This document shows positions 2,560 through 47,384 of a DNA stretch of 64,000 bases, piece after piece. The stretch's first letter is position 1. Every line of letters starts with the position of its first letter. The DNA is from Chloroflexota bacterium (GTDB taxonomy: Bacteria; Chloroflexota; Anaerolineae; Anaerolineales; Villigracilaceae): positions 10,373 through 74,372 of the forward strand of contig JACRLB010000032.1 in NCBI GenBank assembly GCA_016235445.1, read 5' to 3'. The notes under the pieces are model-generated. The model saw only the letters and a program-made list of their open reading frames with translations, made no database searches and was not told the DNA's origin. The position numbers and the translations under genes were made by a program.

Positions 2560-2619
2560 AAATATTTATGATATTTATCTAATATATTGACAAGAAGATA
2601 CCGGGCAGTTATACTGCCC
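2560..2619 (+). promoter_or_regulatory. sigma70 promoter of sufR with two candidate operators
   Basis: TTGACA (2587-2592), 17 bp, TATACT (2610-2615). Palindrome AAATAT-N5-ATATTT at 2560-2576. GGGCAGT-tat-ACTGCCC (2603-2619) overlaps the -10. Confidence 0.8.
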
Positions 2620-2622
2620 AGT

Positions 2623-3249
2623 ATGAAATCTACGCGAGATAAAATTTTACAGACTTTACTGCGAAAACCACGCTCAACCATTAACGATCTCGCCGAAGCA
2701 GTCGGCATTAATCCCATATCCGTGCGCCATCACCTCACCAACCTCCAAATGGAGGGGCTTGTGGAAGGACAGGAAGAGCGCCATGGAGTGGGACGCCCGC
2801 GCCTGGTATATCTCCTCACCGATGAAGGCATGGAGCACTTCCCCACCCGCTACATGAAATTGACTACACGACTACTTTCTCAGATGAAGGAAACCATGCC
2901 GGGGCCGGTCGTGGCTAAATTATTCAACCAGATCGCTGAAGACCTGGCCAGCGAATATACCGAGGATATGAAAAATCTGAGTATGGAAGAACGCCTTGAC
3001 TTTGTCAAAGAAATGCTGGCGCAGGAAGGCTTCACCGTAGAATGGGAGAAAAAGGGCGGGCAGTATCATATCCACGAAATCTCCTGTCCATACTATCAGA
3101 TCGGCGTGGCGCATCCCGAAGTCTGCACCGTGGATCAGACCCTGATCTCAAAAATGCTCGCCCTGCCTGCCAACAAGGTGCAATGTATTTTGGATGGCGG
3201 CGCGCATTGCACCTATGTTGTACAGCCAGCGGAAGTAAAGAGCAAGTAA
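2623..3249 (+). CDS. sufR: SufR-like HTH transcriptional regulator with C-terminal Cys (Fe-S) motif
   Basis: N-terminal wHTH (VRHHLTNL, GVGRPRLVYLLT). C-terminal CPY-x10-C and CILDGGAHC. Followed by sufT. ATG 2623 preferred over TTG 2587, which is the -35 box. Confidence 0.75.
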   Translation: MKSTRDKILQTLLRKPRSTINDLAEAVGINPISVRHHLTNLQMEGLVEGQEERHGVGRPRLVYLLTDEGMEHFPTRYMKLTTRLLSQMKETMPGPVVAKLFNQIAEDLASEYTEDMKNLSMEERLDFVKEMLAQEGFTVEWEKKGGQYHIHEISCPYYQIGVAHPEVCTVDQTLISKMLALPANKVQCILDGGAHCTYVVQPAEVKSK

Positions 3250-3751: not shown

Positions 3752-4399
3752 TCATTCTCCCTTTTTCCAGTGCATGGAATGTGGTTGTTCGCCTTCTGCG
3801 AAACCTGAAATGATGATCAAGGCGTTGGTCACATTCGTGCCAGGGTTTCGCCAGCGATGGCTTAGCTTGGACGCGAACAAAAGACTATCACCCGCTTCGA
3901 GGTGGAATAATTCCTTCTCTACATAATAATCCAACTGGCCGCGCAGGCAGAAGACAAACTCATGGCCGGTATGCACCATGCTGTGCGGGCCGCTGGAAGA
4001 GCCGCTTTCCAGCGTAAGCATGAACGGCTCCACCCTTCCTATAAACTGCTCCCCACCCAAAGCCTCGAACACGCCCCGCGTAAATGACATGCGCGTGCGC
4101 TCGTCCGATTTCAAGAACACCATCTGCTTCTTTTCAGTTTCCACACCGAAGAACGCAGTGATCGAAACCCCCAAAGCGTCTGCCAATTTATAGAGTGTGC
4201 TCACAGAAGGCGAGGTTTTCCCGCGTTCAATCATCGAAAGCGCGTTGGCCGACAAACCGCTTTTCGTGCCGAGCGTGCGCATGGAAATCCCCCGCGCCTC
4301 GCGCAGTTCACGCAAACGGGACGCCACATCCACTGATACTGCTTCTCGCTGAAATGCTTCCATTTGTTCCTCCGGGCTTGGGGGGTTGCAAATATTCAT
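3752..4399 (-). CDS. XRE-family HTH regulator with C-terminal cupin domain
   Basis: LRELREARG...LSMIERGKTSPSVSTLYKLA HTH and HTGHEFVFCLRG...H cupin motif. Exact start uncertain. Confidence 0.88.
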   Translation of the reverse strand: MNICNPPSPEEQMEAFQREAVSVDVASRLRELREARGISMRTLGTKSGLSANALSMIERGKTSPSVSTLYKLADALGVSITAFFGVETEKKQMVFLKSDERTRMSFTRGVFEALGGEQFIGRVEPFMLTLESGSSSGPHSMVHTGHEFVFCLRGQLDYYVEKELFHLEAGDSLLFASKLSHRWRNPGTNVTNALIIISGFAEGEQPHSMHWKKGE

Positions 4400-4538: not shown

Positions 4539-4886
4539 ATGGTCACCCCTACCCTAAAACAGGAAATCACCCAACTCGAAGCCAACTTCTGTGCGGCGCT
4601 TTCAGACCCGAATCGCCTTCTCATTTTATACTCCCTCAGCGAAGGGCCGCGCAACGTAACCGAACTTGGGATTGAACTCGGGTTGAACCAGCCCACTACA
4701 TCGCGCCATCTCAAAGTCCTGCGTGAGCGGGGGCTGGTACACACCGTCCGCACAGGCACAATCATCACCTATCATCTTTCCGATCCAAGACTCATTCAGG
4801 CGCTTGATTTATTACGAAACGCGATGCGCGACAGACTCGCACACCAGGCAAACCTGATTAATGAAGTTTCACAGGAGAATGTATGA
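4539..4886 (+). CDS. ArsR/SmtB-family transcriptional regulator
   Basis: ALSDPNRLLIL...NQPTTSRHLKVLRERGLV. Stop overlaps the start of the next gene (atga). ATG 4539 preferred over TTG 4470. Confidence 0.9.
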   Translation: MVTPTLKQEITQLEANFCAALSDPNRLLILYSLSEGPRNVTELGIELGLNQPTTSRHLKVLRERGLVHTVRTGTIITYHLSDPRLIQALDLLRNAMRDRLAHQANLINEVSQENV

Positions 4887-6319
4887 AAAACCGCTTCCCT
4901 TCATGGACCTTGGGACTGCTCGGCATAATTTTGCTGATTCTCGTCCCGGTCATTTACTACCTACCCCGCGCCCAATCCAGGAACGACCCTGCGGCTTACC
5001 TGCCCACAAAAGCCGTGCATGTGGATCACAAAGACATCGTCAACGGCGAATTCAAAACAGGGCAGGAAGTAACCCGCGCCTGCCTCGAATGCCACGAAGA
5101 CGCCGCAACGGAATTCATGAAAACCACACACTGGACATGGGAATCAAAACCCTTCGATGTCCCCTGGCGCGACGAAGATGTGACCATCGGCAAAGCCAAC
5201 CAGATCAACAACTTCTGCATCGGCTCACAAGGCAATGAAGTGACCTGCACCGCCTGTCATGCAGGCTACGGCTGGGAGCAGGGGCGCGAAGCCCAGCAAG
5301 CCAACCCCGAAAATGTGGACTGCCTCGCCTGCCATGCCGACCTCGGCTCATACACAAAGAGCAAATACGGCAACCCCGCCGAAGGCGTTGACCTGCTCGC
5401 CGCGGCGCAAAGCGTGCGCGCTCCCACCCGCGAGAACTGCGGAAAATGCCACTTCGATGGCGGCGGCGGCAACGGCGTCAAACACGGCGACCTCGACGAG
5501 AGCCTGTACTTCCCTGGCGAATCACTCGATGTTCACATGGGCGGCGAAGCAAACATGCAATGCACCGACTGCCATTGGACGGAAAACCACCAAATTCTCG
5601 GGCGCATGATCGCAGATAATTACACCATCGACCCCGAAGAACAAGTTTCCTGCGAACAATGTCACGTCGACCAACAGCACAAAGATGAACGCATCAACAC
5701 CCACCTTGCATCCGTTGCCTGCCAGACCTGCCACATTCCCGCAATCGCTCTCGAAGACCCCACCAAAGTCACTTGGGACTGGTCACAAGCGGGTCAGGAA
5801 GGACGCGAGGACGACCACTTCACCTACCTCAAGATCAAAGGCGAATTCGTCTACGAAAAGAACTTCACGCCCACCTATCTTTGGTTCAACGGCAATAACG
5901 AATATCGCTACATCCTCGGCGACCCGCTCGGCAAAGACGGCATCACCTACATCAACAAGCCTGCTGGAAATATCGAAGATGTAACTGCAAAGATATTCCC
6001 GTTCAAACTGCACATCGCCAAACAACCCTACGATGTAAAAAATAATTACCTGCTTCAACCCGTCACATCTGGCAAGGATGGATTCTGGACCACCTTCGAT
6101 TGGAACAGCGCCTTCGAACTCGCCGTACCCATCACAGGCCTCGCTTACAGCGGCGAATACGGCTTCACTGAAACCTACATGTACTGGGCAACCACCCACA
6201 TGGTGCAACCCGCAGACAAAGCCTTGCAATGCGAATCATGTCACGGCGAAAACGGCCGCATGGACTGGGCCGCCCTCGGTTACCCTGGCGACCCAATTGA
6301 ATGGGGCGGAAGAAAATAA
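4883..6319 (+). CDS. otr: Octaheme c-type cytochrome, tetrathionate reductase (OTR) family
   Basis: Eight CxxCH motifs (CLECH, CTACH, CLACH, CGKCH, CTDCH, CEQCH, CQTCH, CESCH), OTR signatures IGK-x5-NNFC and GGGG-x3-KHGDL, N-terminal membrane anchor/signal. Confidence 0.88.
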   Translation: MKNRFPSWTLGLLGIILLILVPVIYYLPRAQSRNDPAAYLPTKAVHVDHKDIVNGEFKTGQEVTRACLECHEDAATEFMKTTHWTWESKPFDVPWRDEDVTIGKANQINNFCIGSQGNEVTCTACHAGYGWEQGREAQQANPENVDCLACHADLGSYTKSKYGNPAEGVDLLAAAQSVRAPTRENCGKCHFDGGGGNGVKHGDLDESLYFPGESLDVHMGGEANMQCTDCHWTENHQILGRMIADNYTIDPEEQVSCEQCHVDQQHKDERINTHLASVACQTCHIPAIALEDPTKVTWDWSQAGQEGREDDHFTYLKIKGEFVYEKNFTPTYLWFNGNNEYRYILGDPLGKDGITYINKPAGNIEDVTAKIFPFKLHIAKQPYDVKNNYLLQPVTSGKDGFWTTFDWNSAFELAVPITGLAYSGEYGFTETYMYWATTHMVQPADKALQCESCHGENGRMDWAALGYPGDPIEWGGRK

Positions 6320-6366
6320 ATGGTAATTAGTAATCGGTAATTACCATTTACCAATTACTAATCCAA

Positions 6367-9075
6367 ATGGAACCGACTATGAAACGATACTCCCTCACAA
6401 TCATTGGACTTCTCCTCCTCGCCCTCGCCATTGGATTTGGCCCCGCTCTCGCCTCGTCCGCGCCTGCTCCAGCCTCACAGGCTTCGACACTACACCCGAA
6501 CTTTATCCTGCTCGATGCAGACGGCGCGAACGTGCTCGAAAGCGGCAGTGCCGTCTCCACCATGCAAACCTGCGGACAATGCCACGACACCGATTTCATC
6601 GCCTCGCACGCATTTCACTCCGACCTGGGATTGGCTGATTATGCCGCATCGAAAGAATCATGGGATGCAAGCACAGGCACGTTTGGTCAATGGAATCCGC
6701 TCACCTATCGCTACCTCTCGCAAGACGGCGATGAACGGCTGGACCTCTCCACCGCTGAATGGTTAATGCTGAACGGCGAAAGAGTCGTCGGCGGCGGACC
6801 AGCTACAACGTCACGCAATGATGCGCCGCTCGCAGATGTAAAAGTCAGCAGGGAAAATCCCGAAACGTCCATCTTGAAAAATGGAAGCCCCACAACCTGG
6901 AACTGGGACAAATCCGGCACGATGGAAATGAACTGCTTCCTCTGCCACCTTGAAACTCCCAACACCGAAGCGCGCGCTGAAGCCATTCACGCAGGCGAGT
7001 TTGGCAATGCCAACACCGCCACTTTGATTGGCTTGAATGTGGTCAATAAATCCAGCGAAGGCTGGGTATGGAATCCTGAATCCTTCAACGAGAATGGCGA
7101 ACTCAAAAGCGAGTTCATCGGCATTCAAGACCCCACCAATGCAAACTGCGCCACCTGTCACGGTGAAGTTCACCCCGAAACGGAAGAGCCGCTCACCCTC
7201 AACGCCTGTGATTTGGATTATCCACAAACTGCCACAACAGGCCAGGTCGTCAGCGGACAGCGCATCAACGAGTCTGGCGTAAACCTGACAGACAAAAATA
7301 ATATCGAGCGTTCATGGGATATTCACGCCGAACGACAACTGCAATGCACAGATTGTCACTACGCTTTGAACAACCCTGCACATGCCAGCGAATTGCAAAG
7401 CAATAATCCCGAGCATCTCGTCTACGACCCGCGCTCGCTGGAGATTGGTGAATATCTCGAAAGACCAGACCATAACTTCGCGCGCGGCGAAAGCGCACAA
7501 TTCAACGTGGCTCCCGAATACAAGGGCACCATGCGCCGCTGTGAAAACTGCCACGACGCCAGCAAGGGACATGCAAACTGGCTTCCATACATCGGAACGC
7601 ACATGGACGCAGTCGCCTGCGAAACCTGCCACATCCCGCAGATGTACGCGCCTGCCATCCAAACCTACGACTGGACTGTCATCACGACAAGCGGTACAGC
7701 GGTTGAAACCTGCCGCGGCGTGGATGGCGACCCGAACGCAGTGACATCTCTGGTGACTGGCTACGAGCCTGTTCTGCTCAACCGCACGAACATCGACGGC
7801 GACACTTTGCTCGCGCCGTACAATCTGATTACGTCCTTCTACTGGGTGTACGATGACGCCAATGGAAACAAACGCCCCGTCCGCCTGGTTGATCTCGAAG
7901 CCGCGTATCTCGAAGATGGAAAATATGCGGCAGACATCGCCGCCGCATTTGACTCAAACGGCGACGGCAAACTCGCCTCGAATGAATTAACGCTTGACTC
8001 TGCCGCAAAGACCGATGTGGTCAAAACAAAACTTGCCGCGCTGGGTTTGAACAACCTGCGCATCGAAGGCGTGGTACAGCCGTACAGCATCAACCACAAC
8101 GTCACACGCGGAGACAGCGCCATCAATGACTGCAAAGCCTGTCACAACGAAAACTCACGCATGTCACAGCCGATCAAACTCACAGACTCTGCGCCCGTCC
8201 TGCCTATTTTTGACGCGGCTAACAACGTCAACAACAGCGGCGAATTTGTCACGGACGCGGATGGCGCGTTGTATTACCAGCCCATGCCCGCCGAAGACAA
8301 CTTGTATGTCTTCGGCTCCAGCCGCGTCAATTGGGTGGATTGGTTCGGCGCGATTGCATTTGCGGGTTCGCTCTTAGGTGTGATCGGGCATGGGACGCTG
8401 AGATATCTCTCGTCGCAGAAACAGCCCAAGGGTCAGAAAAGAACCGAGCGGATTTATATGTACGACACGTATCGCCGCTTCTGGCATTGGTTACAGACCT
8501 CGTCCATCGTCATCCTGTTGTTTACAGGCTTGATCATTCACAGACCCGATATTTTCGGTGCGTTCTCGTTCCGCGGTGTGGTGACGGTGCATAACGTGGT
8601 GGCGGTCATCCTTGTGATCAACGCGGCGTTGTCGTTGTTCTATCACATCACGACGGACAGAATTCGGGAGTTCATTCCGCATCCGTATGGGTTTTTCGAT
8701 GATGCGATCGTCCAGGCCAGGTATTACATCGGTGGAATATTCAAGGGCGAAGCTCACCCCTTCGAAAAACTGCCAACCAGCCGCATGAATCCCATTCAGA
8801 AAATGACCTACTTCATGATCTTGAACGTGCTGTTGCCTTTGCAAACCATCACAGGCGCGTTGATGTGGAGCGTGCAAAAGCGGCCTGAGTTCGCAAATGC
8901 GCTCGGCGGACTGCCTTTCCTTGCGCCGTTCCATTCGCTCGTGGCGTGGATGTTTGGCACGTTCATCCTCGTGCATGTGTATATGACCACCACTGGCGCA
9001 ACTCCGCTCGAAGCGATGCGCGGGATGGTGACGGGGTATGAAGAAGTGGAAGTGCATGAGAGCAAGGATGAATGA
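6367..9075 (+). CDS. Heptaheme cytochrome c fused to a C-terminal cytochrome b (FdnI/PhsC/HupC-like) membrane domain
   Basis: Signal peptide; seven CxxCH motifs; C-terminal TM domain with RFWHW, TVHN, NPIQK, FHS and VHVY His motifs. Start may be 6379 (MKRYSL). Confidence 0.85.
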   Translation: MEPTMKRYSLTIIGLLLLALAIGFGPALASSAPAPASQASTLHPNFILLDADGANVLESGSAVSTMQTCGQCHDTDFIASHAFHSDLGLADYAASKESWDASTGTFGQWNPLTYRYLSQDGDERLDLSTAEWLMLNGERVVGGGPATTSRNDAPLADVKVSRENPETSILKNGSPTTWNWDKSGTMEMNCFLCHLETPNTEARAEAIHAGEFGNANTATLIGLNVVNKSSEGWVWNPESFNENGELKSEFIGIQDPTNANCATCHGEVHPETEEPLTLNACDLDYPQTATTGQVVSGQRINESGVNLTDKNNIERSWDIHAERQLQCTDCHYALNNPAHASELQSNNPEHLVYDPRSLEIGEYLERPDHNFARGESAQFNVAPEYKGTMRRCENCHDASKGHANWLPYIGTHMDAVACETCHIPQMYAPAIQTYDWTVITTSGTAVETCRGVDGDPNAVTSLVTGYEPVLLNRTNIDGDTLLAPYNLITSFYWVYDDANGNKRPVRLVDLEAAYLEDGKYAADIAAAFDSNGDGKLASNELTLDSAAKTDVVKTKLAALGLNNLRIEGVVQPYSINHNVTRGDSAINDCKACHNENSRMSQPIKLTDSAPVLPIFDAANNVNNSGEFVTDADGALYYQPMPAEDNLYVFGSSRVNWVDWFGAIAFAGSLLGVIGHGTLRYLSSQKQPKGQKRTERIYMYDTYRRFWHWLQTSSIVILLFTGLIIHRPDIFGAFSFRGVVTVHNVVAVILVINAALSLFYHITTDRIREFIPHPYGFFDDAIVQARYYIGGIFKGEAHPFEKLPTSRMNPIQKMTYFMILNVLLPLQTITGALMWSVQKRPEFANALGGLPFLAPFHSLVAWMFGTFILVHVYMTTTGATPLEAMRGMVTGYEEVEVHESKDE

Positions 9076-9124
9076 TGAATTATGAAGGATGAATTTTCCT
9101 TCGTGTTTAGAAAAGGAATCTGAA

Positions 9125-9670
9125 ATGACCACTCAAACGAGAAAATCAATATTCAACCGCCCTGAAAAATCATACGTGCATCCATACTTTGGCGGAGTTG
9201 TACTTGGAATTGTGTTGTTCCTGGCCTTCTTCCTCACCGGCAACGGGCTTGGCTCATCGGGCGCAACCAGCCGCATCGACGCGGCTATCGTGGATGCGAT
9301 CTCCCCCTCGCACGTGGATAACAACCCCTATCTATTGAAGATGGCGGGCGGCGAGAAGAATCCGCTGGATGATTGGATCGTGCCTGTATTCTTCGGCGCA
9401 CTGCTCGGCGGCTTTTCATCAGGCTTTTTCAATGGACGCTTGAAATTCATGACCACCAAAGGCCCCAACATCTCGGACCGCACCCGCTGGTTGATGGCTT
9501 TCCTCGGCGGTGTGATCTTTCTCTACGGCGCACGCCTGGCTCGCGGATGCACCTCCGGACAGGCGCTTTCGGGCGGGGCAACTCTCTCGGCAGGTTCGTG
9601 GGTGGTCATGTTCGCCATCTTCGGCGGAGCGTACGGCGTGGCGTATTTTGTTCGGAAATTTTGGAACTAA
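9125..9670 (+). CDS. YeeE/YedE (TsuA-like) sulfur-compound transporter, half-size
   Basis: Hydrophobic protein with GLGSSG and GARLARGCTSG motifs. ATG 9125 follows aaagga. Confidence 0.85.
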   Translation: MTTQTRKSIFNRPEKSYVHPYFGGVVLGIVLFLAFFLTGNGLGSSGATSRIDAAIVDAISPSHVDNNPYLLKMAGGEKNPLDDWIVPVFFGALLGGFSSGFFNGRLKFMTTKGPNISDRTRWLMAFLGGVIFLYGARLARGCTSGQALSGGATLSAGSWVVMFAIFGGAYGVAYFVRKFWN

Positions 9671-9788: not shown

Positions 9789-11090
9789 ATGAACTTTCCC
9801 CTCCCCTCTCTCAACGCAGTCAGCGCAGCCAACCCGTGGACGTACGTTCTCTTCGCCGCCATCGGTTTCGCGTTCGGCTACACACTTGAAATGTCTGGCT
9901 TTGGCGATTCGCGCAAACTCGCCGCGCAATTTTATTTCACAGAGATGACCGTGCTCAAGGTCATGTTCACCGCCATCACCGTGGCAATGGTTCTGCTCTT
10001 CGGCGCGGTCGGCCTCGGCCTGCTGGATTTCAGCCAGGTCTGGGTCAACCCCACCTACCTCGCCTCTGGCATCGTCGGCGGACTCATCATGGGCGTGGGC
10101 TTCATCGTCGGCGGGTTCTGTCCCACCACCTCGCTGGCCTCCGCATCCACAGGCAAGATCGACGGCATGTTATTCATGCTCGGCGGATTTGTCGGCGCGT
10201 TCCTCTTCGGTGAAACCGAAAAATATTTCGACGGCTGGTACACCAACGCAGGCTATTTCGGACGCCTCACCCTCGACCAGGTCTTCGGCATTCCCGTCGG
10301 CGCGGTGGTGCTGATCGTCATTTTGATGGCTCTGTTTATGTTCTGGGGTGGGGAACAATTGGAGCGCATCTTTGGTAAAAGGGATTTGGCAAAGGAACCC
10401 AGGCTGAGGGTCGTCGGAGGCGTGGCCCTCTTCGCGGCGGCAGTGGCAGTGCTGGCAATCGGCAGTCCCTCACTCGCAGACCGTTACAACAAAGTCACCT
10501 TCACCCGCACCGAAACCGTCGAACAGTTGAACGCAGACCCCATCGTCAACACCTATGTTTACACTGCGGACGAAATGCTCGCCAACCGACTGGTCTTCAC
10601 CTCGCCTGCCGAGGCCTTCAAGGCAAAATACAACCAGTCCATGAATCCCGTTTATCTCGATGTGCGCTCCGAAGCGGACTACAACCTGTATCACATCGAA
10701 GATGCGGTCAACGTGCCGCTCGAACGAATGCTGGAAGTTGTGCCCGTGCTGTTGAGTGAGCCGCCCGCGAACACGGTTTTCATTTTGATAAGCAACGATG
10801 AAGCCGCCGCCGTGGATACGTGGAAACTGCTGGTAGGATCGAGCGTGCAAAATGTGTACATCCTCGAAGGCGGAGTGAATAACTGGATCGCGTTCTTTGG
10901 CAACGATGACAAAACGCTTCATCCCAACCCGAATGCTGGTGACGACCAATTGGGCTATCTCTTCCCTGCCGCATTAGGCAGTCGCTACGAGTCATGCTCG
11001 CCAGACCCGATCGAATATGAAAAACTTGAATTCGAGCAAAAGATCAAATTGCAATTGAAGCGGGATAAAAGCGGAGGCGGGTGCGGGTAG
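9789..11090 (+). CDS. YeeE/YedE protein fused to a rhodanese-like domain, C-terminal GGGCG
   Basis: FGYTLEMSGF and GFIVGGFCP YeeE motifs; LDVRSEADYNLYHIEDAVNVP and VYILEGGVNNW rhodanese motifs. Confidence 0.82.
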   Translation: MNFPLPSLNAVSAANPWTYVLFAAIGFAFGYTLEMSGFGDSRKLAAQFYFTEMTVLKVMFTAITVAMVLLFGAVGLGLLDFSQVWVNPTYLASGIVGGLIMGVGFIVGGFCPTTSLASASTGKIDGMLFMLGGFVGAFLFGETEKYFDGWYTNAGYFGRLTLDQVFGIPVGAVVLIVILMALFMFWGGEQLERIFGKRDLAKEPRLRVVGGVALFAAAVAVLAIGSPSLADRYNKVTFTRTETVEQLNADPIVNTYVYTADEMLANRLVFTSPAEAFKAKYNQSMNPVYLDVRSEADYNLYHIEDAVNVPLERMLEVVPVLLSEPPANTVFILISNDEAAAVDTWKLLVGSSVQNVYILEGGVNNWIAFFGNDDKTLHPNPNAGDDQLGYLFPAALGSRYESCSPDPIEYEKLEFEQKIKLQLKRDKSGGGCG

Positions 11091-11137
11091 GGGTGGTTGG
11101 AGATTAGAGAATTAGAGATTAGAGATTGGTAATTGAG

Positions 11138-11173
11138 GAAGACTCCTGAGGTTTCGGGAGTCTTCTTTTTTTT
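11138..11173 (+). terminator. Intrinsic terminator closing the otr operon
   Basis: gaagactcc/ggagtcttc stem followed by a T8 tract. Confidence 0.85.
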
Positions 11174-11197: not shown

Positions 11198-11412
11198 GGG
11201 TGCGGACTAAAGTTTCGGAAATGTGGCGCAAGTCTCTGACTTGCGAGGCAAATCAGAGATTTGCCTCGCGCGGAGTGCCGAAAAAATATTCCACACCCAG
11301 TCCCCGGGTGCGGACTAAAGTTTCGGGAATGTGGCGCAAGTCTCTGACTTGCGAGGCAAATCAGAGATTTGCGCCGCGCGGAGTGCCGAAAAATATTCCA
11401 CACCCAGTCCCC
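11198..11412. repeat. Tandem dimer of a ~101-bp palindromic element (period 108 bp)
   Basis: Near-identical units start at 11198 and 11306. Each has imperfect terminal IRs and, in unit 1, a perfect 12-bp hairpin gcgaggcaaatc/gatttgcctcgc. Confidence 0.9.
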
Positions 11413-11582
11413 GGTATCGCTTGAATTTTGAGTGGGCTCGTTGTATAGTGATTATGCTGCTTTTATCCTAATTTTCTCTACCGTACATGGAAAACCTAAA
11501 GGTCTCCTTTCCCTTCGCAAAAACACCGATTAACAGAAAAGACCTTTAGGGTTTTTACGAGAGAGATGTACGACAGCAAGTC

Positions 11583-41372: not shown

Positions 41373-43832
41373 CTACGGGACGTAGTATTCAATTATCAAC
41401 CGAGGGCGGTTCGCCGCCGCGGCATTCCCGCTGTAAATCTTGAGGAAATCCGCGCCATTGTCGTTGTTGTCGTCTATCTTGAAGCGCAGACGGAATTGAG
41501 TGGAGCCCCCCTTGTGAATGTATTGGAAGTTCACAGCGTTGAGCGCTTTGATATACCAGCTACTGACCGTGGCGCTGGTATAGACCAGCACCCCGTTCTT
41601 GCTGGCTGTGGCCTTGAAATCGTTGAGTTGCAGGGCCGCATTGGCGCTCAAGGGTCCCTTGCGGATGTCCGCTACCAGATTGCCATGTGTGGTGAAAGGT
41701 GACGTTCCTGTGAAGCCGATATGCTTGAACTTGAGATTGACCTTGGTGATAATGGCATTATCGGGCAGGGAAGCGGTGTTGAAAGAGAGGATGGCGCGGT
41801 ATTGCCTGTCGGCCGCATCGTCACCGAGGTAGAGTTGGGCGGCGGCGCTGTTCATGCTTCCGCCCGTGCCACTCGTTTCGGTGGATTCGAGTATCCATCC
41901 ATCCTGGGAGGCCGTGGGATAAAAGGCAACAGTTACATTGCTCTCCACCGAACCGATGTCGCAGTGCGTGCCTTGCGGACGGGTGCGTCCGTTTTGCGAG
42001 GTGTTATTGACCGGCGCGGCGGCGCAGACCGCATCGTTGCCCGCGTCGATGGCGGGGGAGCCAGGGTTGAGGGGCAGATAGGCCGGAGAACCAGTCAACA
42101 GACCGAGGTTTGGGTCTGAGTTGTCGGTCAAATCGCAGGGAAGACTGCCGTTGGATTCGATCAGGTTATTGAGCACAGTCACGGTAGCGGTGTTTGTACT
42201 GCAATCGCCGTCGCCGTTTATGGAATTGGCGATAATAGTGTTGTAGAGATTCAAAACGCCCACGTTTTTGATGCCGCTGCCCGATCCGGACGCAGAGTTG
42301 TTCGAGAAGGTGCTGTTGGTGACGGTGGCGGCGCCATTGTAGTTGTAAAACCCGCCACCATCGAAGCTTGTGGCGTTGTTACCGTAAAAAGTGCTGTTGG
42401 CAATGGTGACCGTGCCGCCATCATTATCCACGCCGCCGGAGCCATTTGCCACGTTGTTGAGAAAAGCGCTGTTGGTGATGGTGACCTGTCCAGAGATATT
42501 GGCAAGCCCGCCGCCGTATGCACCGCTGGCGTTGCCGTGCTCAACGGTGATGTTTTGCAGAGTAAAGGAAGAACTCGGTGAGACGACAAAGGGACGATGC
42601 AGATCGTTGCCGCTCACAGTGATGTCTCCACCGCCGTCAAGGATGAGACCCAGCCCGCCGTTGATATTCTGCAATCCTGAGCCAAGCGTTATGGTGGCTG
42701 TGCCGAGCGCATCACTAAAGAGGATGGTATCAAGGCCCGTCCCCGCGGCGCAGGCATCCACAGCGGAGTTGGTGTTGGCGGCTTCGATGGCTTCGCGCAG
42801 AGAGCAGTCGCCATCGCTGTTGAGTTCATCAGTGGCGGTGTTGACGGTGATGGTGGCGCTGGGAGTTTCAAAGCGGGCGACGTAATCGGCATTCGCATCC
42901 CCGCCCGCGTTGATGAAATCCCCGCCCGCGTACACATCCGCGCCGCTGATGGCGATGGCATTGACCGAGTTATCCAACGGCGTTGAACCCAGCGCTGACC
43001 ATACTCCGCCGCTGAAGTGGGCGATGTAGTCGGCATTCGCATCCCCGCCTGCATCAAGGAAACCCCCGCCCGCATAAACATCCGTCCCGCTGATGGCGAT
43101 GGCATAGACAGGGTTATTCAACGGCGTCGCGCCCAGAGCTGACCATACTCCGCCACTGAATTTAGCGATGTAATCCGCATTCGCGTCCCCGCCTGCATTG
43201 AAGAATAACCCGCCCGCGTACACATCCGCCCCGCTGATGGCGATGGCATAGACACTGTTATTCAACGATGTCGCGCCCAGAGCAGACCAAGCCCCGCCGC
43301 TGAATTTGGCAATGTAATCCGCATTCGCGTCCCCGCCTGCATCCGTGAAAGTCCCGCCCGCGTACACATCCGCCCCGCTGACGGCGATGGTATTGACAGT
43401 GTTATTCAACGGTGTCCCGCCCAGAGCTGACCATACTCCGCCGCTGAATTTGGCAATGAAATCCGCATTCGCATCCCCGCCTGCATTGAGAAATGCCCCG
43501 CCCGCGTACACATCCGCCCCGCTGATGGCGATGGTATTGACATAGTTATTCAATCCAGTTCCCAGTGCGTTCCACACATTGGGGGAAGCCAGCGGCTTGA
43601 AAGTCGGCCCAAGCGCTGGGTCGAGGCTGACATCGAAATTGGTGATGTCGAGCTCGCCGCTGTAGCCTGTGCTCAAATCCAGCGTGCCGTCTGCGTTGAG
43701 CAGGCGCTCCACGGGCAGGGATGCGGCGTTACCCTCCGCCGCCTGGGCAGGCGTGGCTCTGCCAAGCAGTGAAGCCAGCAGAACAAAGACAAACAAAAAA
43801 TTAAATGAAAACTTTGAAAAGCGGGATTTCAT
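41373..43832 (-). CDS. Secreted protein: five 48-aa beta-propeller-like repeats + CSLREA domain + beta-helix/choice-of-anchor-Q-like region + shared C-terminal domain
   Basis: Signal peptide after aaggaga SD; five 144-bp repeats; GDCSLREAI; GSPAIDAG...QNGRTRPQGTHCDIGSVE; ends RPRLIIEYYVP. Confidence 0.85.
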   Translation of the reverse strand: MKSRFSKFSFNFLFVFVLLASLLGRATPAQAAEGNAASLPVERLLNADGTLDLSTGYSGELDITNFDVSLDPALGPTFKPLASPNVWNALGTGLNNYVNTIAISGADVYAGGAFLNAGGDANADFIAKFSGGVWSALGGTPLNNTVNTIAVSGADVYAGGTFTDAGGDANADYIAKFSGGAWSALGATSLNNSVYAIAISGADVYAGGLFFNAGGDANADYIAKFSGGVWSALGATPLNNPVYAIAISGTDVYAGGGFLDAGGDANADYIAHFSGGVWSALGSTPLDNSVNAIAISGADVYAGGDFINAGGDANADYVARFETPSATITVNTATDELNSDGDCSLREAIEAANTNSAVDACAAGTGLDTILFSDALGTATITLGSGLQNINGGLGLILDGGGDITVSGNDLHRPFVVSPSSSFTLQNITVEHGNASGAYGGGLANISGQVTITNSAFLNNVANGSGGVDNDGGTVTIANSTFYGNNATSFDGGGFYNYNGAATVTNSTFSNNSASGSGSGIKNVGVLNLYNTIIANSINGDGDCSTNTATVTVLNNLIESNGSLPCDLTDNSDPNLGLLTGSPAYLPLNPGSPAIDAGNDAVCAAAPVNNTSQNGRTRPQGTHCDIGSVESNVTVAFYPTASQDGWILESTETSGTGGSMNSAAAQLYLGDDAADRQYRAILSFNTASLPDNAIITKVNLKFKHIGFTGTSPFTTHGNLVADIRKGPLSANAALQLNDFKATASKNGVLVYTSATVSSWYIKALNAVNFQYIHKGGSTQFRLRFKIDDNNDNGADFLKIYSGNAAAANRPRLIIEYYVP

Positions 43833-43934
43833 GAACATTTCTCCTTGTAGGTTGGATATACCAGAGTGGAAAGACTGCAAGAGATTTATCCCACGCCTTC
43901 GTTTCAAGTATATTGGAAGGTTTGAACAAGAGCT

Positions 43935-44218: not shown

Positions 44219-46366
44219 CTACGGCACGTAATACTCAATCACCAACTGAGGCCTGTTCACGGCCCCCGCATTCCCGCTGTAGATCTTGAGGAAATTGGCA
44301 ACAGCGTTGTTGTTGTCATCCAGCTTGAAGCGCAGGCGCATCTGCGTCAGCCCTCCGCCCGTGCCAAGTTTATTGATAAAAGTTTTTGCAGGCGTCAGAT
44401 TCAAGTTGTACCAGCCTGCGGTCAATGCGGGGGATGTCGGTCCAACGGTCTTGCTGGCAGTGGCATTGAAATCCCCAAGCGCGAGTGGCGCAGTGCCGAA
44501 CATGCCTTTCTTGATGTCCACCACAAAGCCCTGGAACATGCCGACTGGGTTTCCACCGCCAACCACGCCCTGTCGCTTGAGTTTGAGGGTGACTTTGGTA
44601 ACGATGGCGTTATCAGGCAGGGTGGATGTGTTGAATGACAGGATGGAGCGATACTGTCTTTTAGCGGCATCATCTCCCAGATTAAGAGTCGAGGCGGCGC
44701 TGTTCATCGTTCCGCCCACGCCGCTGGTTTCCGTCGATTCGAGGATAAAGCCATCTTGAGCGCCGGTTGATTTGAAGGTAGTGATTATTGTCTTTTCGAT
44801 ATCATAGGTTTCGCCACTGGTAAAGGGCAGGCCGCTCAATGGATTACTTGACAGGTCAGTGATGGTAGCGGAGGCAGGCACATCGAGACGGATGGTGCCG
44901 TTGCCTGTGCCGGTGGAAACTGTCACAGTGTAGGAACTGCCCGTGCCGCTGACCCCGCTCACGGCGGCGCCAGAGACGCCGCTTGTCGTCAGGGTGAAAT
45001 CGCCCGTATCCACTCCCATTACAGATTCGGAGAAGGTGACGGTGAAATCTACGCTGGTGAGTGCGGTGGGGTTGGGGCTGGCAAGGGCGCTCGCAGTTAC
45101 AATAATTGGTTGAATCCCAAAGCGGGCAATATGATCCGCGTCCGCATTCCCGCCCGCGTTGGAGAAGTCGCCGCCTGCGTACACATCCGTTCCACTGATG
45201 GTAATGGCATAAACCCAGTTATTCAACGGCGTTGAACCCAGCGCAGACCATGCCGAGCCGCTAAATTTGGCGATGAAATCCGCGTTTGCATCCCCGCCTG
45301 CATTAGCGAAGGATCCGCCTGCGTATACATCTGTCCCGCTGATGGCGATGGCGTAGACAAAATTATCCAATGGTGTTGAACCCAGCGCAGACCATGCCGA
45401 GCCGTTGAATTTGGCGATGTAATCGGCATTCATATCCCCGCCCGCATCCGTGAAAGTCCCGCCCGCGTACACATCTGTCCCGCTGACGGCGATGGCATTG
45501 ACCGATTCATTCAACGACGTCGCACCAAGCGCAGACCAGGCAGAGCCGTCGAATTTGGCGATGAAATCGGCATTCACATCCCCACCCGCATTGAAGAAGG
45601 TTCCACCCGCGTATACATCTGTCCCACTGACGGCGATGGCGTTAACCTGCTGATTCAATGGCGCTGAACCGAGCGCAGACCATGCCGAGCCGTTCCATTT
45701 GGCAATGTAATCCGCGTTCGCATCCCCGCCTGCATCGAGGAATCTCCCGCCCACGTACACGTCTGTTCCGCTGATACCGATGGCATGGACAGCATTGCCC
45801 AACGGCACCGCGCCCAGCGCAGACCATGCCGAGCCGTCGAATTTGGCAATGTAATCCGCATTCGCATCCCCGCCTGCATTCGTAAACCAACCGCCCGCGT
45901 ACACATCCGTCCCACTGACGGCGATGGCAGTGACATAGCTATTCAACGGCGTCGCGCCCAGCGCAGACCAGGCAGAGCCGTCCCATTTGGCAATGTAGTC
46001 GGCGTTCGCATCATAGCCTGCATCGAGAAAGTAGCCGCCCGCGTACACATCCGTCCCGCTGATGAAAATGGTAATTACCGAGGACATCAGCCCGGTTCCC
46101 AGAGCATTCCAACTAATGGTGGTAGCCAGCGGCTTGAAAGTTGGCCCAAGAACGGGGTCGAGGCTGACATCGAAATTGGTAATATCGAGTTCGCCGCTGT
46201 AGCCTGTGCTCAAATCCAGCGTGCCGTCTGTGTTGAGCAGGCGCTCCACGGGCAGGGCTGCGTTACTCTCCGCGGCCTGGGCAGGCGTGGCTCTGCCAAG
46301 CAATGAAGCCAGCAAGACAAAGACAAACAAAAAATTAAATAGAAACTTTGAAAAACGGAATTTCAT
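44219..46366 (-). CDS. Secreted protein: seven 48-aa beta-propeller-like repeats + Ig-like + shared C-terminal domain
   Basis: Signal peptide near-identical to gene 41373; seven repeats ALG-x-PL-x3-V-x-AIAxSGTDVYAGGxF; ends RPQLVIEYYVP. Confidence 0.88.
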   Translation of the reverse strand: MKFRFSKFLFNFLFVFVLLASLLGRATPAQAAESNAALPVERLLNTDGTLDLSTGYSGELDITNFDVSLDPVLGPTFKPLATTISWNALGTGLMSSVITIFISGTDVYAGGYFLDAGYDANADYIAKWDGSAWSALGATPLNSYVTAIAVSGTDVYAGGWFTNAGGDANADYIAKFDGSAWSALGAVPLGNAVHAIGISGTDVYVGGRFLDAGGDANADYIAKWNGSAWSALGSAPLNQQVNAIAVSGTDVYAGGTFFNAGGDVNADFIAKFDGSAWSALGATSLNESVNAIAVSGTDVYAGGTFTDAGGDMNADYIAKFNGSAWSALGSTPLDNFVYAIAISGTDVYAGGSFANAGGDANADFIAKFSGSAWSALGSTPLNNWVYAITISGTDVYAGGDFSNAGGNADADHIARFGIQPIIVTASALASPNPTALTSVDFTVTFSESVMGVDTGDFTLTTSGVSGAAVSGVSGTGSSYTVTVSTGTGNGTIRLDVPASATITDLSSNPLSGLPFTSGETYDIEKTIITTFKSTGAQDGFILESTETSGVGGTMNSAASTLNLGDDAAKRQYRSILSFNTSTLPDNAIVTKVTLKLKRQGVVGGGNPVGMFQGFVVDIKKGMFGTAPLALGDFNATASKTVGPTSPALTAGWYNLNLTPAKTFINKLGTGGGLTQMRLRFKLDDNNNAVANFLKIYSGNAGAVNRPQLVIEYYVP

Positions 46367-47384
46367 AAACATTTCTCCTTGTAGGTTGGATATACCAGAA
46401 TGGAAAGACTGCAAGAGATTTATCCCACGCCTTCGTTTCAAGTATATTGGAAGGTTTGAACAAGAGCTATTTTATGAGAATTATCTGGATTAGACAACCA
46501 TCCAAAAGGGGGAAAATTCAGCCCCCGCATCCTGCTGGATGTGAGGGCTGATTCTGTTTTCTGCATCAATTCCCCCGGCTGATAGTTTTTCAATTCGCCG
46601 TCAGCTTCCTACGGCACGTAATACTCGATCACCAACTGAGGCCTGTTCACGGCCCCCGCATTCCCGCTGTAGATCTTGAGGAAATTGGCAACAGCGTTGT
46701 TGTTGTCATCCAGCTTGAAGCGCAGGCGGATTTGCGTCAACCCGCCGCCCGTGCCAAGTTTATTGATAAAGGTTTTTGCAGGCGTCAGATTCAGGTTGTA
46801 CCAGCCTGCGGTCAATGCGGGGGAGGATGGCCCGACGGTCTTGCTGGCGGTGGCATTGAAATCTCCGAGCGCAAGAGGTGCAGTGCCGAACATGCCTTTC
46901 TTGATATCTGTCACAAAGCCCTGGAACATACCGACTGGGTTTCCACCGCCAACCACGCCCTGTCGCTTGAGTTTGAGGGTGACTTTGGTAACGATGGCGT
47001 TATCAGGCAGGGTGGCAGTGTTGAATGACAGGATGGAGCGATACTGTCTTTTAGCGGCATCATCTCCCAGATTAAGAGTCGAGGCGGTGGCGTTCATCGT
47101 CCCGCCCACGCCGCTGGTTTCCGTCGATTCGAGGATAAAGCCATCTTGAGCGCCAGTTGATTTGAAGGTAGTGATTATTGTCTTTTCGATATCATAGGTT
47201 TCGCCACTGGTAAAGGGCAGGCCGCTCAATGGATTACTTGACAGGTCAGTGATGGTGGCGGAGACAGGCACATCGAGGCGGATGGTGCCGTTGCCTGTGC
47301 CGGTGGAAACTGTCACAGTGTAGGAACTGCCCGTGCCGCTGACCCCGCTCACGGCGGCGCCAGAGACGCCGCTTGTCGTCAGGG
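46125..47384. repeat. Direct repeat copy B
   Basis: Matches 43588-44994 (offset 2537 at the low end, 2390 at the high end). Confidence 0.9.

Follow-up and report, generated by a model that had tools for sequence, protein, structure and literature searches.

The last gene of a putative sulfur operon (9789..11090, forward strand) in the window, the 64,000-nucleotide stretch of Chloroflexota DNA analysed here (contig JACRLB010000032.1, positions 10,373 to 74,372; family Villigracilaceae), encodes a 433-residue protein in which half of a YeeE-type channel is joined to a rhodanese fold and a C-terminal arm ending in SGGGCG. We propose, with a probability of roughly one half, that this fusion is the carrier subunit of a conserved extracytoplasmic module for sulfur respiration and uptake. 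Comparative evidence makes Cys432, at the tip of the arm, the likely site at which sulfur (or selenium-sulfur) would be carried covalently. The protein presents a flexible, slim-tipped arm with a single functional Cys on a membrane-tethered extracytoplasmic domain, features that are either directly apparent or strongly inferred. The arm could serve a reductase, a channel, or both, because its gene is tied to a cassette that includes a periplasmic reductase, which is Otr in this lineage and a Psr/Phs-type molybdoenzyme in another.

Architecture of the fusion protein

The open reading frame closes with a TAG stop codon (11088..11090). It encodes, in order, half of YeeE, two additional membrane helices, the rhodanese fold and the arm. 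Pfam assigns Sulf_transp to residues 45-224 (E 1.8e-15) and Rhodanese to residues 286-368 (E 9.9e-11). The parts, with the evidence for each (including the predicted local distance difference test, pLDDT, of the AlphaFold2 model), are as follows:

9789..10214, forward strand: YeeE half B, residues 1-142, a four-helix unit equivalent to H1-H6 (PF04143; AlphaFold2 helices)
10296..10460, forward strand: two extra transmembrane helices, residues 170-194 and 206-224 (AlphaFold2 helices; lysine plus arginine density)
10596..10898, forward strand: rhodanese-fold domain without the catalytic Cys, approximately residues 270-370 (PF00581; pLDDT 85-95; Foldseek)
10791..10811, forward strand: loop S335-N-D-E338-x-x-A341 at the CX4-5R position (alignment to solved rhodaneses)
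10899..11039, forward strand: C-terminal extension packed on the rhodanese domain, residues 371-417, with motifs L.Y.F.AALG.RY.A..P.P (pLDDT approximately 85)
11040..11090, forward strand: last strand K418-I-K-L, basic flexible spacer and G-G-C-G tip (pLDDT; family conservation)

The rhodanese assignment draws on PF00581, on profile matches to 1yt8, 6mxv and Alr3790, and on Foldseek, which returned single-domain rhodaneses (3fnj, 6k6r and 3gk5 among them) and Cdc25. PDB entry 1qxn is also among the profile matches of the domain. A first-pass annotation of the window had read the active loop, ILISNDE (residues 332-338, 10782..10802), as lacking its Cys, and profile alignment to solved rhodaneses agrees, placing Ser335 at the catalytic-Cys position of the CX4-5R loop (6mxv 'yCGSGFRS' versus 'sNdearA'). 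The GGGCG ending with its Cys, which the same annotation had described, is equally real: the C-terminus KIKLQLKRDKSGGGCG spans residues 418-433 (11040..11087) and the Cys432 codon is TGC at 11082..11084. The only other Cys in the soluble domain is the unconserved Cys403. As for the claimed fusion to a YeeE transporter, a YeeE domain is indeed fused, but only one half of it, the other half being a separate gene (9089..9670).

Across 95 aligned cluster representatives of the family the catalytic-Cys column holds S in 77, G in 8, A in 6, D in 3 and C in a single sequence, so the domain does not qualify as a catalytic rhodanese. The loop is itself strongly conserved, with S in 77, N in 88, E in 89 and A in 87 of the 95, giving the pattern [S]-N-[D/G]-E-x-x-A. 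The idea of a built-in, tethered carrier on a dead rhodanese scaffold is thus well supported by comparative evidence as regards the carrier, but the domain may be more than an inert scaffold, because this pseudo-active loop has been retained. The extension that follows the rhodanese domain has conserved columns at F392, A395, G397 and P405.

Conservation of the terminal cysteine

An exhaustive HMMER search with the C-terminal 194 residues returned 669 cluster representatives, and nearly all full-length members, at 30-45% identity, end in GGCG or GGCGG. Among the 95 aligned representatives, which span the same identity range, C432 is invariant (95/95), and the flanking glycines are close to it: G430 in 93, G431 in 94 and G433 in 93. 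All 118 of 118 profile-search matches end in GGCG, GGCGG or a near variant. The closest homologues (at least 79% identity; Anaerolineales, Candidatus Villigracilis) keep GGGCG in 118 of 120 cases. Genome context was examined at 80 loci from species-representative genomes, out of at least 594 matches; these loci were retrieved with a fusion-derived alignment (A2), which biases the set towards fused forms. The GGGCG ending is present in 76 of 79 genome loci, the remaining three being cut by contig ends. Judged from these alignments, the conservation of the tail is far beyond chance. The objection that the terminal Cys might not be conserved therefore fails, given its invariance in distant homologues.

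The length of the arm is also constrained. In 186 of 220 homologues the Cys lies 13-14 residues beyond K418 in the last strand (K418-V/I-K). The spacer between them varies in sequence, yet is basic, with a mean net charge of +3.5. Whether the protein is fused or unfused, the arm is invariant in sequence and length. AlphaFold2 gives pLDDT values of 34-46 over residues 424-433, consistent with disorder, while the domain itself is modelled confidently.

Three very large proteins among the matches (P0123, P0181 and P0227; 1,197-2,327 aa) are canonical Cys-containing arrays of rhodanese domains and were not counted as family members. A sorting or lipidation signal was considered as another reading of the tail and rejected: the residues after the GG include no hydrophobic segment, the cassette lacks a gene for a processing enzyme, and the replacement of the Cys by selenocysteine described below would not be expected of such a signal.

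Selenocysteine in homologues

Two representatives, L090 and L091, stop exactly at the expected position of the tail Cys. The L090 fusion gene, on a Joint Genome Institute metagenome contig (1684-2940), contains an in-frame TGA at both invariant Cys positions, equivalent to C111 and C432 of the window protein. Its channel site reads ...GFIIGGF-TGA-PGTS..., and its tail reads ...VVGGG-TGA-GGA-TAG (codons GGG-TGA-GGA-TAG), matching the C-G-stop ending of the family. The first TGA is followed after 14 nucleotides by the hairpin GGUAGC-GGUC-GCUACC, and the second, 14 nucleotides downstream, by GCCGUC-GUU-GGCGGC (apical loop GUU; z = -2.7). No such hairpins were found at the channel or tail site of the Cys-encoding window gene in the same folding comparison. 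UGA at Cys positions together with a hairpin resembling a selenocysteine insertion sequence (SECIS) is the pattern expected of a bacterial selenoprotein, and the L090 protein probably contains two selenocysteines (Sec).

A scan of metagenomes for GGF-TGA-PGT identified 12 further contigs, all encoding in-frame homologues, which brings the channel-TGA contigs to 13 with L090. The 12 share a conserved hairpin 14-16 nucleotides downstream of the TGA, with compensatory changes at two stem pairs. These SECIS-like hairpins were judged by folding and covariation; an Rfam scan of the Sec-containing contigs gave no match to a SECIS family. L091 was considered as a second case of tail Sec. Although it combines GG-TGA-GGC with a well-placed hairpin, it lacks a stop after them and was left uncounted as ambiguous.

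Sec typically replaces redox-active Cys, and Sec/Cys pairs mark reactive residues (PMC1794560). YeeE-family selenoproteins have already been listed (PMC13188914). Because TGA occupies both codons in L090, with a hairpin after each, there is strong comparative evidence, drawn from sequence, that Cys432 and Cys111 are the reactive residues of the family. The two also look functionally linked, a claim behind which one gene, L090, stands.

The split YeeE channel and membrane topology

The second half of the channel is encoded directly upstream of the fusion:

9089..9670, forward strand: YeeE half A, 193 aa, the counterpart of H8-H13 in full-length YeeE (PF04143 E 3.6e-21, profile positions 162-309 of 310)

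The fusion matches positions 11-196 of the PF04143 profile and half A positions 162-309. With two adjacent four-helix halves bearing one conserved Cys each, the pair has the features of a split YeeE of the PmpAB type. Both halves combine a PF04143 domain with a conserved Cys in a re-entrant loop. In half A this is Cys154 (9548..9550; motif ARGCTSGQ), the counterpart of C293 at the periplasmic mouth of YeeE, and ARGCTSG is kept in 74 of 75 loci. In half B it is Cys111 (10119..10121; motif GGFCPTTS), equivalent to YeeE C91 and invariant in alignment A2. The AlphaFold2 helices of half B reproduce the YeeE pattern, with helices 17-35 and 54-75 forming one element and helices 91-108, 112-120 and 124-142 the second; Cys111 lies in the loop before the short helix, as does C91 of crystallised YeeE. 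NCBIfam selenium models assign the two halves in reverse, so the assignment used here rests on Pfam, topology and the helix pattern. NCBIfam TsuA models score 17-25 bits against cutoffs of 400-645, and the channel is divided between proteins of 193 and 433 aa, unlike a single-chain TsuA (approximately 330-350 aa with nine transmembrane helices).

Residues 170-194 form a central H7-like helix running from out to in, and residues 206-224 an anchor running from in to out. The loop between them (195-205) is short, K/R-rich and predicted to be cytoplasmic, with 0.30 K+R per residue in 42 homologues. Throughout the membrane part of these homologues, K+R per residue amounts to 0.07-0.30 in loops predicted inside and 0.00-0.05 in loops predicted outside. 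The N-terminus of half A is likewise K/R-rich and predicted to be cytoplasmic. Unfused homologues (205-215 aa) open with a classical signal anchor made up of M-K/R-x-x-K, a hydrophobic stretch and GQPT, and the anchor helix of the fusion matches this N-terminal 'MKxxK + hydrophobic stretch + GQPT' element. The YeeE crystal structure has the H7-H8 loop in the cytoplasm and C293 on the periplasmic side (PMC7449682). Because of the positive-inside counts, the signal-anchored unfused forms and the homology and helix order shared with YeeE, the rhodanese domain and arm are predicted to be extracytoplasmic, sharing that side of the membrane with Cys154 of half A. The first-pass annotation had allowed that the terminal Cys might be on the wrong side of the membrane to reach its substrate; with the domain predicted to face Cys154 at the channel mouth, that objection falls away.

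A conserved cassette with a periplasmic reductase

The fusion gene is the last of four in the order Otr, multihaem/cytochrome b, YeeE half A and half B with its rhodanese and arm. The remaining features of the operon are:

4883..6319, forward strand: octaheme cytochrome c of the Otr family (478 aa; 8 CXXCH motifs; signal/anchor at the N-terminus), whose gene opens the cassette (PF11783 E 6e-55)
6367..9075, forward strand: heptaheme cytochrome c fused to a PhsC-like cytochrome b (7 CXXCH motifs and a signal peptide; PF01292 at residues 699-890)
11135..11168, forward strand: hairpin resembling an intrinsic terminator, a 15-bp stem followed by a T-run, ending the operon

The product of the first gene belongs to the Otr family, matching Shewanella OTR (1SP3) with E 3.4e-133 over residues 49-473. 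The product of the second matches the NCBIfam thiosulfate reductase cytochrome b subunit with E 5.5e-38, below the family cutoff, and is a putative quinol dehydrogenase feeding electrons to Otr. The four-gene cassette is present in every locus whose contig reaches far enough upstream (60-63 of 80), and Otr is found upstream in 60 of the 80. Unfused cassettes keep the same order with six genes; in two of them, L081 and L083, the heptaheme/cytochrome b protein is encoded by two genes (705 and 213 aa). A further locus (L084) has only the YeeE halves and the carrier, with no reductase nearby. No additional conserved cassette gene was found across the 80 loci, and SoxZ is not encoded alongside. The hosts are Chloroflexota and, at approximately 70% identity, Thiobacillus, Gallionellaceae, Rubrivivax, Burkholderiales and Lysobacterales. 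The presence of copies at this identity in Proteobacteria indicates that the cassette has been transferred horizontally as a unit.

Low-GC contigs (36-37%) with the channel TGA carry a different front end. In L096 (1908-7000), L099 (9201-14359) and L103 (2878-8855), a MerR regulator, a PhsA/PsrA-like molybdoenzyme, an NrfC-like protein and NrfD precede half A, half B and the rhodanese, so that a split YeeE with a channel TGA stands behind a Psr-type front end in place of Otr. The carrier of these Psr-type cassettes is a signal-anchored, Cys-less rhodanese ending in ...KKKAP(E/Q)GGC-stop. Gene order thus couples two unrelated classes of quinol-linked periplasmic reductase, both for S-S-bonded sulfur anions, to the same trio of YeeE halves and arm.

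The converse does not hold for Otr. Shewanella algae (L087, 3814-7401) and Marinobacter (L089, 3900-7383) have a small cytochrome c, a DUF3373 protein and otr but neither a YeeE nor a rhodanese gene, and in Malonomonas otr stands alone. These Shewanella-type loci rule out the generalisation that Otr always occurs with a Cys-arm carrier. Because Otr occurs without the trio in Shewanella, Marinobacter and Malonomonas, the tightest genomic association is that of the arm with split YeeE. The unit of cytochrome c, DUF3373 and otr suggests a different deployment of Otr, possibly associated with the outer membrane.

Several other features were noted around the cassette. Upstream in the window are genes for a long ArsR-type helix-turn-helix (HTH) protein (2587-3249, forward strand), conserved in 19 of the 80 loci, and for an HTH_3-cupin regulator (3752-4399, reverse strand), conserved in 28; all of these loci are in Chloroflexota, and both genes are absent from the proteobacterial copies. 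The 47-nucleotide gap between the Otr and multihaem/cytochrome b genes contains an AT-rich inverted repeat with a 16-bp stem (6325-6363). Short GATTAGA-type repeats occur at 11097-11125. Directly after the operon terminator, 11198-11414 holds two tandem copies with a 108-nucleotide period, 97-100% identical and containing the palindrome GCGAGGCAAATCAGAGATTTGCCTCGC. In a Thiobacillus metagenome-assembled genome (L027, 10485-11786), the product of the gene right after the cassette starts with a Tat-type signal plus a GxGxxG motif for binding FAD (MKLNRRDFL...VVVVGAGYGG); judged from the N-terminus alone, this may be a flavocytochrome c or SoxF-like sulfide dehydrogenase subunit. Elsewhere in the window, two adjacent open reading frames on the reverse strand (41373-43907 and 44219-46441; 844 and 740 aa) share the identical N-terminus LKRRRGINLLQSFHSGISNLQGEMFMK and are probably tandem paralogues.

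Proposed function

In the proposed mechanism Cys432 would bind sulfur covalently, in the manner of the GGCGG arm of SoxY, either as an S-thiosulfonate arising from its attack on tetrathionate or as a persulfide or polysulfide adduct. The arm would then swing between two targets a few nanometres apart. One would be the active site of the periplasmic Otr, fed from quinol through the heptaheme/cytochrome b protein, where the reductase would cleave or regenerate the adduct. The second would be the periplasmic funnel of the YeeE heterodimer, in which sulfur species would pass from Cys154 of half A to Cys111 of half B on their way to the cytoplasm. That the fusion to a channel half recurs suggests that the arm also visits the outer funnel of YeeE. 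This full shuttle, with sulfur moving between the quinol-fed reductase and the channel mouth, has in our estimate an even chance of being correct. Judging by the family names, the substrate would be tetrathionate, polysulfide or thiosulfate.

Parts of this scheme have precedents. In vitro, the arm Cys of SoxY becomes an S-thiosulfonate on reaction with tetrathionate (PMC5336275). Otr cleaves the type of S-S bond that lies at the centre of tetrathionate and that the arm adduct would contain. In lucinid symbionts soxY and soxZ lie beside otr (PMC11237559), which independently hints that enzymes of the Otr type pair with arm carriers. Hand-off from SoxYZ to the YeeE-like SoxT has been put forward as a hypothesis by Dahl and colleagues (PMC11582611).

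Several observations weigh against the proposal. There is a single clear example of tail Sec, L090, with L091 ambiguous. The cassette contains no gene for a cytoplasmic TusA/YeeD-like acceptor, and a crude CPxP-motif scan for TusA/YeeD among the small open reading frames of the window returned one implausible overlapping frame only. Otr occurs elsewhere without the trio, and purified Shewanella Otr reportedly reduces free tetrathionate, so catalysis does not require a carrier. The sequencing runs that contain the locus are groundwater-metagenome DNA only, with no RNA runs among them. Finally, the arm is basic and the outer funnel of crystallised YeeE is positively charged (PMC7449682), which is unfavourable for docking unless this family differs.

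An explanation that we consider rather unlikely is that the arm serves the reductase only. The arm would present sulfur from tetrathionate or polysulfide to the Otr or Psr-type site, raising affinity at low substrate, while YeeE anchors the carrier and separately imports free thiosulfate. Wolinella Sud is a periplasmic rhodanese-fold protein that carries polysulfide sulfur for Psr, and it offers a model for such a presenter. The trio stands beside a periplasmic quinol-linked reductase of one of two unrelated types, and the arm varies with the reductase: 13-14 residues and GGCG with Otr, a long linker rich in S/T and K followed by GGC with the Psr-type enzyme. The SoxY homologue adjoining otr in lucinid symbionts is equally consistent with it. 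However, the recurrent fusion to a channel half, the strict adjacency of carrier and channel even where no reductase is nearby (L084), and the replacement of both the tail Cys and the channel Cys by Sec in one gene (L090) point to a direct link between arm and channel.

It is improbable that the loop cysteines of YeeE form a thiol/disulfide relay of the DsbD/CcdA kind, passing reducing equivalents rather than sulfur from the cytoplasm to regenerate the arm Cys. The inverted repeat, in which each half places one reactive Cys close to the middle of the membrane, does resemble thiol-relay membrane proteins, and Sec at both the channel and arm Cys is typical of thiol/selenol exchange. Characterised YeeE/TsuA is nevertheless a thiosulfate uptake channel whose cysteines guide the anion (PMC7449682), the module has its own electron input in the multihaem/cytochrome b protein, and the match to TsoB scores 27.6 bits against a cutoff of 805.

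We give equally little credence to a gate or sensor, in which the pseudo-rhodanese would be a lid on the channel and the Cys-tipped tail would plug the funnel according to the redox or sulfur state of the periplasm. Catalytically inactive rhodanese domains are often regulatory or binding modules, the conserved S-N-D-E loop suggests a binding site of its own, and the slim Gly-rich tip would suit a narrow pore. A plug, however, needs neither an invariant Cys nor its replacement by Sec, and a tip identical to the GGCG(G) of SoxY, in fixed linkage with S-S-cleaving reductases, points instead to covalent chemistry.

Finally, a module for selenium, tellurium or a thiophilic metal(loid), with the terminal Cys as ligand or carrier, is very improbable. 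In its favour, YedE relatives are linked to selenium metabolism, there are weak NCBIfam matches to selen_YedE_FdhT, and some of the loci have ArsR-type and HTH-cupin regulators upstream. But those matches score 18-31 bits against cutoffs of 200-350, the regulators are missing from most loci, including all proteobacterial ones, and five independent components are of the sulfur type (Otr, the PhsC-like cytochrome b, the Psr/Phs-type alternative, the YeeE channel and the SoxY-like tip).

The shuttle between reductase and channel also admits a bolder form, which we regard as speculative and probably wrong. Here the true substrate of Otr, and of the Psr/Phs-type enzyme, would be the protein-tethered adduct on the (seleno)cysteine arm and not the free anion, and YeeE would relay a covalent (seleno)persulfide or thiosulfonate from Cys432 to Cys154 to Cys111. 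If true, this would be the first carrier-mediated covalent translocation of sulfur coupled directly to a respiratory reductase.

Relation to known systems

The nearest functional analogues of the fusion are SoxYZ, Sud/Psr and TsuA/TsuB. SoxY is likewise an extracytoplasmic carrier whose flexible C-terminal arm ends in GGCG(G) with a single Cys; this Cys holds sulfur adducts covalently and presents them to c-type cytochrome enzymes (PMC5336275, PMC6067878). The folds are unrelated, SoxY being a beta-sandwich and the fusion having the alpha/beta rhodanese fold. Pfam and NCBIfam scans of the fusion gave no SoxY match, only Sulf_transp, Rhodanese and weak DUF6691 or selenium-related hits. SoxY has SoxZ as its partner, whereas the cassette of the fusion encodes none. 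The arm of the fusion is tethered to the membrane and fused to the channel, with a longer, basic spacer of approximately 10 residues, and its presumed partners are a quinol-fed reductase module (Otr or Psr-type) rather than SoxXA, SoxB and SoxCD. The likeness to SoxY is convergent, not homologous.

TsuA/TsuB (YeeE/YeeD) shares the Cys-bearing re-entrant loops and a dedicated single-Cys carrier encoded alongside (PMC7449682, PMC11582611). In the window, however, the channel comes from two genes, half B contributing the H7-like helix, and the carrier is an external rhodanese fold with a C-terminal arm, whereas that of TsuA is cytoplasmic and TusA-like; no YeeD/TusA-like gene was found in the cassette. 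Being split, scoring below the cutoffs and lacking YeeD, the fusion is therefore not TsuA. PmpA and PmpB are also two four-helix half-proteins with one conserved Cys each, for which a heterodimer resembling full YeeE has been proposed (PMC11582611). They are approximately 130 aa long, without an H7-like helix, an anchor helix or a soluble domain, while half B in the window carries all three.

Sud, which works with PsrABC in Wolinella succinogenes, is likewise a periplasmic, rhodanese-fold, one-Cys sulfur carrier for a quinol-linked reductase. The 1qxn profile match supports the comparison, and the Psr-type cassettes make it a close one. Sud is soluble and has the canonical loop Cys; the fusion has Ser there, is anchored in the membrane and bears its reactive Cys at the tip of the arm. 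The cassette Otr is a clear homologue of Otr from Shewanella oneidensis (1SP3), although the Shewanella/Marinobacter context differs, with cytochrome c and DUF3373 and no YeeE or rhodanese gene. On sequence grounds, then, the fusion appears SoxY-like in its working without being SoxY, has a rhodanese fold without being a catalytic rhodanese, and contains a YeeE domain without being TsuA.

Significance

Family members carry only the database names 'YeeE/YedE family protein' or 'rhodanese-related sulfurtransferase'. A search of the literature on YeeE/YedE, rhodanese, SoxY, octaheme cytochromes and Chloroflexi found no description of the family; a Dethiobacter paper links SirA-like octahaems with ordinary rhodanese proteins only. 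The family is nonetheless widespread, occurring in at least 594 species-level genomes and hundreds of metagenome clusters, and it reinvents the swinging arm of SoxY on a dead rhodanese. Its Sec/Cys pairs pinpoint the key residues.

To our knowledge, the physiological role of Otr has been unclear since its structure was solved in 2004. Otr now gains a conserved set of genomic partners and a testable substrate hypothesis. If the shuttle is correct, the fusion of a Cys arm to half of a YeeE channel would serve as a 'Rosetta stone' for a periplasmic carrier that passes its cargo straight to a channel, a step so far hypothesised for SoxYZ and SoxT. The module is found in Anaerolineales abundant in groundwater and wastewater, as well as in Gallionellaceae and Thiobacillus, and it may therefore matter for the cryptic cycling of tetrathionate, thiosulfate and polysulfide.

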